The notes beneath the pieces were generated by a model. The model did not search any database. It was not told the DNA's origin and was given only the letters and a program-made list of their open reading frames with translations. From an uncultured Enterobacteriaceae bacterium (lineage in GTDB: Bacteria; Pseudomonadota; Gammaproteobacteria; Burkholderiales; SG8-39), in contig CAZTXP010000146.1 of NCBI GenBank assembly GCA_964617355.1, forward strand, positions 6,371 through 70,370: a DNA stretch of 64,000 nt. The letters run 5' to 3'. The translations under genes and the position numbers were made by a program. Positions 48,129-53,253 of this stretch are shown one piece after another; within the stretch, counting starts at the first letter, position 1, and each line of letters starts with the position of its first letter.

Positions 48129-48160
48129 CCTCAGGTGGCGACAGCGGATGCCGCAATGTG

Positions 48161-49126
48161 CTACGAGCGCGGGCAAAACGCCCCTCGCTCCGGCGGCCGC
48201 CCCCAGCATTCCGGATCGGGCTCGAGGCCTTCCGAATTCAGGGTTTCCAGTATCGCGGCCACGGCCGTGCCAAGTGAACAGCCAAGGAATCGCTTCGCCG
48301 CTTCCTGCCCTGCGTCCGCACTATCGGCCGCGAGCACGAAATCCCGGAACGCATTCCAGTCGCGGGAGTAGTGCGCCACAAGGATTCGCGCGAGGTCGTA
48401 CGAGAGCTTGTTGCCCTGGTCCGTGCGCAGGAAGGACTTGCCCAGCCAGAATTCCTGGACTTCCTCCTCGCCCCAGTAGGCGAGGTGCTGCGCGTGCATC
48501 TGCGCCGGTGTGGCGAGGCCGGGTGCCACCCCGCAAAGGCGCTGCTCTGTATTCACCGCGATGCCCTCGTTCAGCCACGCAGGAATCGGCAGGTGCGCGA
48601 GGAACGCGTGCGTCATCTCGTGGGCGATCACCGGCTCGACCGCACGCAGGTCGCCGCGCACGGTAATGAAGTGGCTGCAGCCGTGCTGGATGTGCATGCC
48701 GGCGCTGAGGGCGAATTCGCCTTCGTCGGGATAGTAATGCGAGGCGTACTCGTAGTAGCGGTCGTCGTCGTCGAAGACGATGAGGATGTCCTTGCCCCAG
48801 TCGCTGGACTGCGCGACACCGTCGAGCACCATGATGATGCGCTTCGCTGTGCGCGACATGAACTCGCGCGTCGCCGCCGCCTGCCGGCGATCGAGCGCCG
48901 AGACGAGGAACGCCGAATCCGACTCCTCGAGCCGGTACGTCGGCCCGAGCGCATCGCGCAGGTGAAGCAGCCAGGCGCGCTCGCAATCCGTCCATGCGGG
49001 GCCGCGTGCCTCCTCGGGCAGGGTATCGATCCACGCCTGGACGGGCTCCCAGTTGCACACCGGGAGCCCATACGTGGACTGGAAGTGCTCGCGGATCCGG
49101 AACGACACGGACGAGCCGGAACGCAC
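48161..49126 (-). CDS. Putative HExxH zinc metallopeptidase (family unassigned)
   Basis: VIAHEMTHAFLAHLPIPAWLNEG (HExxH...E). The N-terminal extent is uncertain, and an overlapping alternative-frame ORF suggests a possible frameshift. Confidence 0.5.
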   Translation of the reverse strand: MRSGSSVSFRIREHFQSTYGLPVCNWEPVQAWIDTLPEEARGPAWTDCERAWLLHLRDALGPTYRLEESDSAFLVSALDRRQAAATREFMSRTAKRIIMVLDGVAQSSDWGKDILIVFDDDDRYYEYASHYYPDEGEFALSAGMHIQHGCSHFITVRGDLRAVEPVIAHEMTHAFLAHLPIPAWLNEGIAVNTEQRLCGVAPGLATPAQMHAQHLAYWGEEEVQEFWLGKSFLRTDQGNKLSYDLARILVAHYSRDWNAFRDFVLAADSADAGQEAAKRFLGCSLGTAVAAILETLNSEGLEPDPECWGRPPERGAFCPRS

Positions 49127-49321
49127 GCAATCCGGGCGCCTCGAGTTGCAGGGTCTCCGGCGGCGCGTTCGCGCCGCCGAGCCAGCGACCGAGCAGCGAC
49201 TTCATGGCCGCCACCCCACGGGCCTGGTGCTTGCGTCGGCGCGATGCGTAGGCACTGTCGAGATCCCCGTGCAGATCCTAGCGGATCGTGCCGCCGCCGC
49301 GGCGTGACTATTGCCAGCCGG

Positions 49322-50386
49322 CTAGACCAGCGCCTTGTACACCTCCGCCACCGAGCACTTCCCGCTCGGCTTGCCGCCGATCACGTGCTCGACCCGAGCA
49401 GCCTTGTCGGCGTCGGAGCCCGCGAGCGATGCCGCGAGTGCCCGCGCCTCGGTGCTCGTCAGCGCGCGCACATCCACCCGCGCGAAGCAGCGGCCGGGAC
49501 GGACGAGGGCATCGTCGAGGTCGCCAACGTTTGGCAGGTTGGTCGAGAAGATGATCTTCCGACCCTGCGCGCGGACCACGCCGTCCGCGATCGCGAGGAA
49601 GCGGTGCAGGTGCTCGTTGCCGTCGGCCCGGGGCTTCAGCAGGTGGTCGGCGTCCTCCACGACGAAGGCGTCCGCGCGGCCGGTGATGAAGCGCACGAAG
49701 ATCTCGTCCGAGGCAAGCGCCTTGACGTCGCCGGTATAGAGCGCGCGCGCCTTGCCGTTGCGGCGGCGCGAGATCTCGCCGAGGATCGCGCGGATCAGGC
49801 GCGTCTTGCCCGTGCCCGGTGGTCCTTGCAGGACGAGAACGGTCTCCGGCGCCTCGAGGAAGCGTGCGACGAAGCCGCGCACGCCACCCTTGATCTCCGG
49901 GTAGGCCTGGTCGTGCAGCACGTCGGTCGCCATTTCCTCGATCGACGCGCTCTCCAGTTCGCCGCGTGCGGTGAGGAAGGTCCAGTCGATCTGGAAGCTC
50001 GGCTCCGTGATGCGCGTAGCGCCTGCCTTGTCGAGGATGCGCTGGATCGCCGCCTCGGCGCGCGCGATGTCGCTCGCCCAGACGTAGAACACGCAGCTGC
50101 AGTAGGTCGACTTCCGGCTGCCATAGGCAGCCACGAAGAGGCCGTCGCCGTCGAGGATCATCGACTCGCCGTTGATGCGCTCGGCGCGCCACGACCGGTC
50201 GAGCGCTACCGCGTCGAGCAAGGCTTCCAGCTCCACGCGCGCCGCGAACCGCAGGTCGCGGAAGATCGGATAGCCCGGCTCCCCGGACTCCAGCGCCGCC
50301 TTGAAGCGGTTCTTCAATACCAGGTCGGCCAGTTCCCAGACCTCCATCACGAGGCCCTGGGGTTGCTTGGATTCGTTGCAAGTCAT
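49322..50386 (-). CDS. Classical-clade AAA+ ATPase (FtsH/Cdc48-like AAA module) with about 170 aa unknown N-domain
   Basis: Walker A GPPGTGKT, Walker B FVVEDADH, SRH ..FSTNLPNVGDLDDALVRPGRCFARVDV. Confidence 0.75.
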   Translation of the reverse strand: MTCNESKQPQGLVMEVWELADLVLKNRFKAALESGEPGYPIFRDLRFAARVELEALLDAVALDRSWRAERINGESMILDGDGLFVAAYGSRKSTYCSCVFYVWASDIARAEAAIQRILDKAGATRITEPSFQIDWTFLTARGELESASIEEMATDVLHDQAYPEIKGGVRGFVARFLEAPETVLVLQGPPGTGKTRLIRAILGEISRRRNGKARALYTGDVKALASDEIFVRFITGRADAFVVEDADHLLKPRADGNEHLHRFLAIADGVVRAQGRKIIFSTNLPNVGDLDDALVRPGRCFARVDVRALTSTEARALAASLAGSDADKAARVEHVIGGKPSGKCSVAEVYKALV

Positions 50387-50436
50387 GTCTTCGCTTTCGA
50401 AAAAAAGGGCGGCCGGCCCGGATCTGCGACCGGCCG

Positions 50437-51576
50437 CTAGCGGATCTTCACCAGATCCTTCAGTACTGCGTCGAGGCCCCCGAACACCGAGATCTTGTCG
50501 ATCTTCTCGGTGACCTTTTCCAGCGTCTCCAGCTCCTTCAGTCGAAGGGCCGTCGGGTTGCCTTCCATCACCCGGGCCGTGTTCAGCAGCGAACGGGTCG
50601 CCGCGGTTTCCTCGCGGCGGCGGATCACGTTCGCCAGCGCGGCCTTCTCGGCCTCCACGACCTTCGCCAGGATCAGCTTCATGTCACCCGGCAGGATGAT
50701 GTCCTTCACGCCGACGGAATCGACCTCGAGGCCGAAGCCCTCCACGCGACGGCGGATGTGCTCCGCGACCGACTGGTCGAGCGCGCCCTTGTCCTCGAGC
50801 AGCTCGTCCAGCGTGCGGGTGCCGACCGCGGCGCGCAGGCCGAACTGGAGCTCCTTGTAGAGGTAGTCCAGCGGCTTCGCCTGCTTCGCGTAGGCCGTCA
50901 GCACGTCCGTCACGCGGTACCCCGCGTTCAGGTTCACGCGCAGCGGGACCTTGTCCTTGGTCAGGATTTCCTGTCCCGCCACCTCGATCACCTGCAGGCG
51001 CAGGTCCACCACGTCGACGCGCAGGTCGCGCAGGAAGCGCCAGTAGTAGTGCATCCCGGCGTCCAGCACGCTTGCGACCTTCCCGTCCACGGTGAGCACG
51101 CCCGCGTGATGCTGCGGCACCTGCGCCGCGAGCACGCCCGCGGCCCCGAGGTCCTTCACCGAGCCGCGGGCCAGCGCCGCGACCAGCTGCGGCACGAGCT
51201 TCTCCGGCACGGCGAAGTCCGTCGCGATGTCCAGGCGCTCGACGCGCACGTCGATGTAGCCCTTCCAGTACAGGCGGCGCGACTGCGGCGCGAGCACCTC
51301 GACCGGCACGTCGTTCTCGTAGCGCAGGCCGAGTTCGGTCGCGCCGAGCTCCACGACGTGGAACTCCCGCGCCGCGACCCCGGGCTCCGACTTCACGAGG
51401 TACTCGGCGAGGCGGTGCTCGAAGCGCGGCTTGCCGAGATCGAACTTCTCGACCGCGACGCGGCGCAGCGGATCGAAGCGCCAGTACTCGCCCGGGCCCA
51501 GTACGTCGACGAAGTCGCCCTTGTCGAACAGGAGCGCACGCTCGTCCTTCTTCACATGGATCTTTCGCACGACCAT
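50437..51576 (-). CDS. SPFH/band-7 (stomatin/HflK/C-like) domain protein
   Basis: ATG at 51574..51576 after GGAAAGGAG. SPFH core plus a C-terminal coiled-coil. Confidence 0.8.
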   Translation of the reverse strand: MVVRKIHVKKDERALLFDKGDFVDVLGPGEYWRFDPLRRVAVEKFDLGKPRFEHRLAEYLVKSEPGVAAREFHVVELGATELGLRYENDVPVEVLAPQSRRLYWKGYIDVRVERLDIATDFAVPEKLVPQLVAALARGSVKDLGAAGVLAAQVPQHHAGVLTVDGKVASVLDAGMHYYWRFLRDLRVDVVDLRLQVIEVAGQEILTKDKVPLRVNLNAGYRVTDVLTAYAKQAKPLDYLYKELQFGLRAAVGTRTLDELLEDKGALDQSVAEHIRRRVEGFGLEVDSVGVKDIILPGDMKLILAKVVEAEKAALANVIRRREETAATRSLLNTARVMEGNPTALRLKELETLEKVTEKIDKISVFGGLDAVLKDLVKIR

Positions 51577-52571: not shown

Positions 52572-52597
52572 GAAGAGGCGAGAAGCGAATGTCGTCG

Positions 52598-52714
52598 CTA
52601 GTCGCATTCCTCCAGCCCGGGTGCGCGCGCATCGGCCCCGACTCGCGCGAACGCCTCCGGCAGCCGCGCGAGGCGGCCGTGGATCGATTGCAGGTTGTCG
52701 TTGCGTGGTTTCAT
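52598..52714 (-). CDS. Candidate small protein (38 aa) with strong RBS, flanked by two terminators
   Basis: TAGGAGAAACCGAC-ATG. MKPRNDNLQSIHGRLARLPEAFARVGADARAPGLEECD. Confidence 0.3.
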   Translation of the reverse strand: MKPRNDNLQSIHGRLARLPEAFARVGADARAPGLEECD

Positions 52715-52760
52715 GTCGGTTTCTCCTAACGCCGCATCTCGCGCGGCGTTGACCCTGGAA

Positions 52761-52800
52761 ACAAAAAAGCCCGGAGCGCATGTGCGGTCCGGGCTTTCGC
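52761..52800 (-). terminator. Hairpin terminator (strong U tract on minus strand, weak on plus)
   Basis: GCCCGGAGCGCATGTGCGGTCCGGGC flanked by AAAAAA on one side and TTTCGC on the other. Confidence 0.45.
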
Positions 52801-53059
52801 TCGTCGGGCGCAGCGGCGCTAGGCGATCGTCTCCGATCGGTCGTCGTTGAATTTGAGTGGCGAGCGCATGGTGTTCGTGTTCACAAGGGCGCGCATTCTG
52901 CGCACGCGAAATTTCGTCGTCAAGAAATTTCTTCAGCCGCCATGCGCGCTGTTGCAAATTCGCGACGCGCGATGTCATTGCGAGTGTTGCTCGCCTGACC
53001 CACCACCCGCTCGAGCCGCACCCGGACGCTGGTGGCCGCGGCCCGGATCCTCGGGCTGG

Positions 53060-53253
53060 CGCATCCCCACGACCCGGCAGGCGCGATCGCCGTGCCGCTG
53101 CGCATCCGCACGCCGATGGGCACGCTGTCGTTCATCAGCACCATCACCGTGTTCGGCACGCCGGTGGACGTGACGCTGTCGGAGCTCGCGCTGGAGCAGT
53201 TCTTCCCGGCGGATGCGGAGACAGCGAGGGTGGTGGGGGCGATGGCGGGGTGA
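53060..53253. repeat. Direct repeat copy 2 (orphan 3' fragment of MmyB-like gene)
   Basis: Near-identical to 47938..48128. There is no upstream remainder of the gene. Confidence 0.85.

Follow-up and report, generated by a model that had tools for sequence, protein, structure and literature searches.

A 4.9 kb accessory segment between two copies of an mmyB-like gene end: an insertion polymorphism without its own recombinase gene

A stretch of 64,000 nucleotides from an uncultured bacterium (contig CAZTXP010000146.1, positions 6,371 to 70,370), referred to here as the window, carries a gene for an MmyB-like regulator whose 3' end occurs a second time on the far side of an accessory segment. 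The segment encodes a HExxH protein, an AAA ATPase, an SPFH protein and a series of tRNA-like genes, and a parE/phd toxin-antitoxin pair lies immediately beyond it. The segment is an insertion polymorphism, with occupied and empty alleles coexisting in the natural population. The features that define its two junctions are listed below in window coordinates; the L numbers used throughout designate sequences compared with the window, those bearing on the junctions being contigs from other samples in Logan, ENA and NCBI.

47331..48128, plus strand: MmyB-like regulator gene, the target, 265 aa; Pfam MLTR_LBD (1.5e-31) and HTH_31/HTH_3
47943..48126, plus strand: left direct repeat, an attL-like hybrid; proximal part chromosomal, distal part and TAG stop element-derived
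48127..53067, no strand assigned: inserted accessory segment; 4,941 bp unique, repeat-to-repeat period 5,125 bp, not in L175 or L173
53068..53251, plus strand: right direct repeat, an attR-like hybrid; mmyB pseudo 3' fragment, proximal part foreign, distal part and TGA stop chromosomal
53264..53545 and 53549..53845, minus strand: parE and phd, a toxin-antitoxin pair by Pfam; native downstream neighbour of mmyB

A repeat search of the window paired positions 47934-48126 with 53059-53251 as a direct repeat of 193 nt at 94% identity. Precise alignment by blastn defined an ungapped core of 184 nt (47943-48126 against 53068-53251) with seven mismatches, 96.2% identity and E ~1e-82, bearing out the preliminary description, which had placed a repeat of the mmyB 3' end at the far side of the segment. 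The window holds only these two copies. Their homology breaks off with the T that opens the stop codon, which is TAG in the left copy and TGA in the right. Counted in codons, the left copy takes in the final ~61-64 of the MmyB-like gene, rather than the 57 first estimated. Third codon positions account for six of the seven core mismatches (P=0.007 under random positions), indicating that both copies diverged under coding constraint, and the encoded tails differ by a single residue, A209G. The target open reading frame (ORF) of 265 aa is still intact after the insertion. No mmyB-like sequence leads into the right copy, which, as had been noted, has no gene body upstream of it; the 73-aa ORF of this right fragment gives a weak MLTR_LBD match. 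The mmyB-like gene and a 130-aa gene at 46827..47219 form a divergent pair kept in many distant genomes. On the other side, mmyB and its native neighbour parE/phd are convergent with a gap of 10 nt, and they are directly adjacent in L175 and L173.

The two contigs in which mmyB directly precedes parE/phd came to light among the 18 contigs returned by an exact look-up of the Phd antitoxin, and each carries a single copy of the repeat, as the preliminary description had anticipated for related DNA. Positions 1-2321 of L175 (ERZ27258485, 2807 bp) correspond to window 55388-53068 at 98.4%, and its positions 2138-2807 to window 48126-47457 at 97.0% without gaps, so that a full-length mmyB abuts parE/phd via one repeat copy. 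The second contig, L173 (ERZ27258501, 5255 bp), matches window 58277-53068 at 99.75% and then continues into 45 nt of mmyB body. Other routes to related loci gave less. Exact-protein look-ups with MmyB and ParE found no match, probably owing to start-codon or allele differences, and a GTDB species scan with MmyB returned nothing above 67% aa identity, hence the comparison of synteny does not extend to isolate genomes. A metagenome scan yielded a single close contig, L091, which ends within the repeat.

Because the comparators are all short metagenome contigs, several of them broken inside the repeat (L081, L084, L091, L176 and L182), and because the source samples contain many strains, we considered whether the repeat or the empty site might be an assembly artefact, whether through collapse or duplication of a repeat or through chimerism of a contig. 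The junctions argue strongly otherwise. The right junction with both unique flanks was recovered at 99.5-100% in L178/L185 (WBZV01043574.1), L184, L186, L187 and L174, amounting to at least five independent assemblies from different samples and pipelines, and L088, a relative at 93.9% identity, covers the left junction with the identical TAG-CCTCAGG join; a further contig, L081, matches window 48990-53139 at 100% identity. Seven fixed differences separate the two copies, and among the copies observed no left and right one have more than 113 nt in common as an exact run. This is shorter than the assembler's k of 141, so that 141 identical bases are never shared between them. The single copy in L175 is flanked by its own haplotype on both sides, at 97.3% and 97.7-100% to the window. 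With both junctions reproduced by independent assemblies, the concern over an artefact raised at the outset is answered, and we regard this explanation as highly improbable.

The differences between the two copies are not randomly distributed. A marker alignment was built of 11 sequences: three left copies, six right copies and two empty sites. At its distal end, all left copies carry G at 48098 and the stop codon TAG, while all right copies and both empty sites carry A and TGA; the A at 48059 of the left copy likewise differs from the empty sites, and is also present in the right copies of L184 and L187. The proximal markers sort the other way. At positions 47939-42 both empty sites read CGTG, as do two of the left copies, those of the window and L088, whereas the right copies read TCCC in five of six cases and TCGC in L179, with T at 47939 in every one. 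The distal part of the window's right copy is identical to the empty sites, and its proximal bases (TCCC...G..A..G) resemble the mmyB allele of L091 (TTCC, 47951 G, 47956 G), a 92%-identical relative. When the element-borne fragment is reconstructed from its two presumed ends (GCGCATCCCCACGACCCGGCAGG...GGGGTAG), both ends resemble this L091 allele, a likeness that points to a heterologous origin of the surrogate 3' end.

The left copy accordingly joins a chromosomal proximal part to a foreign distal part and the right copy the reverse, the reciprocal product of one conservative crossover. This arrangement indicates that a circular element, bringing with it a surrogate mmyB 3' end, inserted in a conservative, Campbell-type manner. 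The arrangement differs from a transposon-type target-site duplication, which staggered cleavage produces as a short copy, identical at first; this candidate is rejected since the repeat is 184 nt long and its differences are reciprocally sorted instead of random; no terminal inverted repeats occur at the segment ends, and no transposase was found among the ~55 ORFs scanned. We also set aside illegitimate recombination of a linear fragment facilitated by homology: it predicts a fully native right copy, yet the proximal part of that copy is foreign. The preliminary description had read the locus as insertion into a gene 3' end with target duplication; the empty site upholds the first part, and the reciprocal hybrids contradict the second.

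The proposed sequence of events is the following. A circular element of ~5.1 kb, an intermediate we infer from the hybrid pattern, would have carried its own surrogate for the terminal ~61-64 codons of an mmyB-like gene and undergone a single reciprocal crossover with the chromosomal mmyB between 47957 and 48058. The gene would thereby have been rebuilt with an element-derived tail ending in TAG, its protein unchanged except for one residue, and the original tail with its TGA stop displaced 5,125 bp downstream, to lie beside parE/phd as a pseudo-fragment. The insertion may have been catalyzed by an integrase of the tyrosine type that was provided in trans or has disappeared since, leaving a remnant resembling a cis-mobilizable element (CIME), and the 184-nt repeats may now permit precise loss of the segment through homologous recombination.

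Comparison of strains adds a population dimension to this picture. Against window 52916-54260, L179 is 85.6% identical at the island end and 99.2-99.5% identical in the repeat and flank, and the switch lies within the repeat; diverged variants of the island occupy the same site, and the position of the switch implies that element and chromosome have separate histories. The right copies of L184, L187 and L181 carry left-type bases, at the equivalents of window 48038, 48059 and 48098, which indicates gene conversion or recombination between copies in the population. Compared with window 46780-50162, L088 is 98.4% identical in the region of the 130-aa gene and ~93% identical in the mmyB body and the HExxH and AAA genes. 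The mosaic divergence of L088 and L179 suggests that this uncultured population recombines frequently.

The agent of the insertion was sought in several places. A Pfam scan of some 55 ORFs spread over the 64 kb window gave no match to an integrase, serine recombinase or transposase, several of these ORFs having no match at all; this agrees with the preliminary description, which had reported no integrase. Neither the small ORFs nor any frame of 52318-53357, including 52400-53060, holds an integrase remnant or other credible family. No recombinase gene having been detected, the element is classed as non-autonomous. An autonomous relative, that is an integrative and conjugative or integrative and mobilizable element (ICE or IME) with the same att specificity, was absent from the GTDB scan, the metagenome scan and the viral contigs; the viral contigs hold no relatives of the AAA or MmyB proteins and the plasmid collection no homologues of the AAA or HExxH proteins, and to our knowledge no autonomous ICE or IME related to the island and using the same target has been described. 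We give insertion by an integrase, its enzyme trans-supplied or lost, about an even chance of being correct.

The same topology could have arisen with no integrase ever involved. A related lineage that natively has the SPFH module behind mmyB would have supplied a fragment, which would have been closed into a circle by illegitimate end joining and integrated by RecA via the ~190 nt of homology, with loss proceeding by the reverse route. Such a history accords with the failure to detect either a recombinase gene or a remnant of one, with the resemblance of both diagnostic ends of the presumed element fragment to the mmyB allele native to the L091 lineage, with the ongoing homologous exchange between copies seen as left-type bases in L184, L187 and L181, and with the highly mosaic population. 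A further point in its favour is an unrelated gene-end repeat pair around a ~4.85 kb segment 3 kb away, which likewise has no recombinase. On the other side, it needs an ad hoc circularisation, and needs it twice if the second island arose likewise; homology limited to an ORF end, together with a preserved product, is the classic signature of an integrase-borne surrogate, as in e14 and icd; and diverged island variants at the same site, such as L179, are more easily obtained by repeated site-specific entry. We consider this history unlikely, though a serious contender.

The unrelated repeat pair deserves description in its own right. It is the one further repeat pair that whole-window self-comparison revealed besides that of mmyB, and it consists of 56425-56538 and 61387-61500, 114 nt at 91% identity with a period of 4,962 bp, corresponding to the 5' end of an alpha/beta-hydrolase gene (61391..62275) from a few bases before the ATG to ~codon 37. 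The segment it brackets (56539-61386, ~4.85 kb) lies 3 kb to the right of the first island, has a lower GC content, and contains an MqsA-like helix-turn-helix (HTH) gene and two large ORFs without family matches; no recombinase was found in it. Its architecture matches that of the mmyB island, but the 5' end of a gene is used, and no common motif was found at the ends of the two islands. The second pair is a sign that such events recur in this region, and it tips the balance modestly towards a generic mechanism.

Several observations weigh against integrase-mediated, site-specific insertion at mmyB and are best considered together. No integrase, related autonomous element or circular (attP) junction was found. 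The insertion need not have been site-specific, in that a RecA crossover of circular DNA sharing 184 nt gives the same structure, and a second recombinase-less, repeat-bracketed segment fits a homology-driven mechanism at least as well as two decayed integrase systems. The empty alleles are equally expected from RecA deletion between the repeats, so that the ancestral state is not proven by them; L173 reaches only 45 nt beyond the repeat, and a chimeric join is a remote possibility in contigs from strain-rich metagenomes. All five of the contigs that carry the 73-aa fragment ORF have it in the attR context, and none of 160 distant MmyB loci has a second mmyB 3' fragment, so that there is no independent sign of integrases targeting this gene family.

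The inserted segment itself holds genes on the minus strand only, and its contents are as the preliminary description had them: the HExxH, AAA and SPFH genes, a mini-ORF with flanking terminators, and five tRNA-like genes at 51873-52396.

48161..49126, minus strand: HExxH protein (HEMTH), predicted gluzincin-type zinc peptidase; no Pfam match
49322..50386, minus strand: Bcs1-like AAA ATPase, 354 aa; Pfam AAA, Foldseek match to Bcs1 over its full length (E 5e-14)
50437..51576, minus strand: SPFH/Band-7 protein (slipin-type), 379 aa; Pfam Band_7 1.4e-31
51873..52014, minus strand: tandem tRNA-like pair, b7a-tRNA-type; Rfam tRNA 56.1 (#4) and 55.8 (#5) bits
52159..52396, minus strand: three further tRNA-like genes with CCA encoded, by ARAGORN and Rfam, namely the next three entries
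52319-52396, minus strand: Arg(ACG) tRNA-like; Rfam 64.5 bits
52236-52310, minus strand: Lys(CUU) tRNA-like; Rfam 69.6 bits, D-loop without the conserved G18-G19
52159-52234, minus strand: Phe(GAA) tRNA-like, weak; Rfam 42.2 bits, G at position 8
52598..52714, minus strand: 38-aa mini-ORF between two intrinsic-terminator-like hairpins; no family match
52575->52537 and 52800->52763, minus strand: putative hairpin-plus-T-run terminators, read from the sequence

The GC content of the segment is 0.63-0.71, against 0.72-0.75 in the flanks, and the HExxH gene fails a filter on GC at third codon positions (GC3) that its neighbours pass. At the right end of the island, the two hairpins were missed by a consensus terminator scan because of their bulged stems, and the mini-ORF between them is also called as a gene in independent contigs. 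A sigma-70-like promoter (52923->52895, minus strand) precedes both terminators, and the set of promoter, terminators and mini-ORF at 52537-52923 (minus strand) possibly represents small RNA or leader-peptide units.

The atypical composition of the segment bears on an explanation that invokes no insertion at all. Ancestral mmyB paralogues, or a segmental duplication around the SPFH region, would have lost the 5' part of the second copy, and the empty alleles would be secondary. Alleles that are left-type proximally and right-type distally are indeed the exact product of a deletion between the left and right copies, and the right fragment has a coding-like GC3 of 0.95. Besides composition, however, the 160 homologous loci include none with tandem mmyB paralogues or second fragments, the pairs formed by distant mmyB genes being only with the upstream 130-aa gene; the module of tRNA-like, SPFH and AAA genes is found in unrelated contexts (L188, L087, L198-L200); the island end is far more divergent between strains than the flank; and placing the cargo between the paralogues needs another unexplained event. 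This explanation is, in our judgement, improbable.

Homologues of the cargo genes place them in a recognizable setting. The SPFH protein is 59-60% aa identical to Burkholderia homologues at loci ordered tRNA-like, SPFH, RtcB, RlaP (L087, L198 and L199). It is 40% identical to a Photobacterium homologue (L200) that has two tandem tRNA-like genes before it and RtcB after it, and 50-51% identical to a slipin of E. coli and Citrobacter that has RlaP after it and, in Citrobacter, RtcR upstream. The order tRNA-like, SPFH, AAA is conserved in the distant locus L188, with 78% (SPFH) and 69% (AAA) aa identity; no direct repeats flank the SPFH-AAA module there (6844-9101). The HExxH protein behaves differently. 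Its homologues are solitary in L089 and L090 and lacking in L188, and, with its atypical GC3, it appears only loosely attached to the module. An AlphaFold2 model of the protein (predicted local distance difference test score 84) gave weak matches to M9 collagenase, lugdulysin and LTA4H (template modelling scores up to 0.45). PADLOC defence models matched the AAA protein at the level of the P-loop only, and neither the SPFH nor the HExxH protein, and the cassette was assigned to no defence system.

The five tRNA-like genes fall into two groups. Within the tandem pair, #4 (51941-52014) forms a complete cloverleaf whose anticodon loop, at 6 nt, is aberrant, and #5 (51873-51938) starts 5 nt after it and has only a 4-bp acceptor stem, its Rfam match covering model positions 4-67. 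A full-plus-truncated tandem layout is also present in Photobacterium (L200, 4674-4811), and single tRNA-like copies precede SPFH in L087 (10840-10912), L199 (4657-4726) and L188 (6161-6234); the E. coli and Citrobacter loci show no tRNA-like match of at least 29 bits. Several of these SPFH-upstream genes are missed by ARAGORN. The minimum free energy of the tandem pair is no more stable than that of shuffles (z = -0.7). A match to the Y RNA-like YrlA at 51883-51989 was rejected, as its 32 bits, against a gathering score of 69, reflect tRNA-like arms in common. The Arg, Lys and Phe tRNA-like genes are dispensable, since empty-site strains lack the segment, and may be functional spare tRNAs, decoys or further tRNA-like cofactors.

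To the right of the island, a Pfam scan found the parE/phd pair and the higA/higB remnant outside the repeat, where the preliminary description had put them. Beyond parE/phd the flank consists of a beta-lactamase-family gene, higA and a 57-aa, 5'-truncated higB remnant. Also in the toxin-antitoxin-type cluster at 53264-56864 are an MqsA-like HTH gene and an AbiEii/DUF2204-like nucleotidyltransferase gene whose partner is 67 aa long; a second DUF6036/DUF2204 nucleotidyltransferase gene lies at 42185..42679. In the close relative L174 (1-540), a DUF4258 gene replaces higBA beyond the beta-lactamase-family gene, so the flank is itself variable. Elsewhere in the window, 35368-39414 (plus strand) encodes a 1,348-aa protein with tetratricopeptide repeats and a C-terminal CHAT (caspase-like) domain, unrelated to the island.

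The locus offers a clean natural case of gene-end surrogate insertion, in which occupied and empty alleles and the reciprocal attL and attR sites are recoverable from metagenomes, and in which an uncharacterised Band-7/b7a-tRNA module moves, on our reading, as a compact cassette of 5 kb. A ligase-less variant, running from tRNA-like gene to SPFH to Bcs1-like AAA, also comes to light here; it is conserved in a distant genome and represents a minimal, naturally dispensable unit. Gene-end islands, CIMEs and the b7a-tRNA association are already known, and current understanding is not overturned; islands of this kind without a recombinase do raise the question of whether trans-acting integrases, or simply RecA, move them. 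A broader proposal, which we put forward only as a long shot, is that the lineage recurrently gains cassettes of ~5 kb that lack their own recombinase gene, each bringing a surrogate captured from the end of a host gene and entering through a single conservative crossover. If it were true, two cassettes would have entered within 14 kb, at the mmyB 3' end and the hydrolase 5' end, their similar sizes would stem from a common vehicle or from machinery acting in trans, such as packaged or circularised DNA of ~5 kb, and the b7a-tRNA/SPFH module with its Bcs1-like AAA protein would travel as a self-contained mobile unit.

The cargo invites comparison with two protein systems. In the HflK/C-FtsH complex, an SPFH cage surrounds an AAA-zinc protease. 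The island likewise encodes an SPFH protein, an AAA ATPase and a HExxH metalloprotease side by side, superficially resembling a split HflKC-FtsH, and the cassette gives weak NCBIfam matches to HflK (8.8e-11) and FtsH_fam (9e-7). Here, however, the parts are separate polypeptides, the AAA protein is Bcs1-like and not FtsH-like, the peptidase is M1/M9-like and not M41, and the peptidase is not conserved with the SPFH-AAA pair; the likeness is a resemblance only. The nearer relative is the Band-7/b7a-tRNA class of RNA-repair modules, predicted by Burroughs and Aravind (2016) according to the summary in bioRxiv 10.1101/312249. As in those modules, a tRNA-like gene lies directly upstream of the SPFH gene on the same strand, and the SPFH protein is related to those found next to RtcB, RlaP and RtcR. 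Unlike them, the island has a Bcs1-like AAA gene after SPFH, and no RtcB, RlaP, RtcR or sigma-54 match: tblastn with L087 queries found neither RtcB nor RlaP in the window, there is no RtcR-type ORF among the small ORFs or frames of 52318-53357, and no sigma-54 consensus occurs near 52400-52950. The island further supplements the module with three tRNA-like genes and a gluzincin gene. Judged by gene content and order, the cargo is a putative variant of the predicted Band-7/b7a-tRNA module with a Bcs1-like AAA ATPase in place of the RtcB ligase; from gene neighbourhoods only, its probable substrate is tRNA or ribonucleoprotein that has been damaged or targeted by toxins, on which it would work together with the tRNA-like RNAs as a scaffold or remodelling complex.

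As an integrated element, the island is most readily compared with e14 of E. coli, which is flanked by icd and the icdC 3' pseudogene and whose excision yields a chimeric gene (PMC13626634). Like e14 and phage 21 in icd, it uses the 3' end of a protein-coding gene as attachment site; and as in e14, a surrogate 3' end with mostly synonymous differences keeps the ORF intact, while the displaced tail survives as a direct-repeat pseudo-fragment. It departs from e14, a 15 kb prophage with its own integrase and excisionase, in being 4.9 kb long, in having no recombinase and no phage genes, and in its MmyB-like target. CIMEs have been described in Firmicutes, with att repeats much shorter than those of the island. 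They are remnants of decayed ICEs or IMEs, defined as retaining attL and attR after the loss of integration and transfer genes (PMC5704250). CIMEs are mobilised in cis once they have undergone accretion with an incoming element. Like them, the island keeps its att sites, lacks integrase and transfer genes and is polymorphic for presence and absence, and by this analogy it would formally fit the CIME definition. The island is a real but fairly ordinary insertion without its own recombinase gene, one that resembles e14 in its junctions and a CIME in its content.

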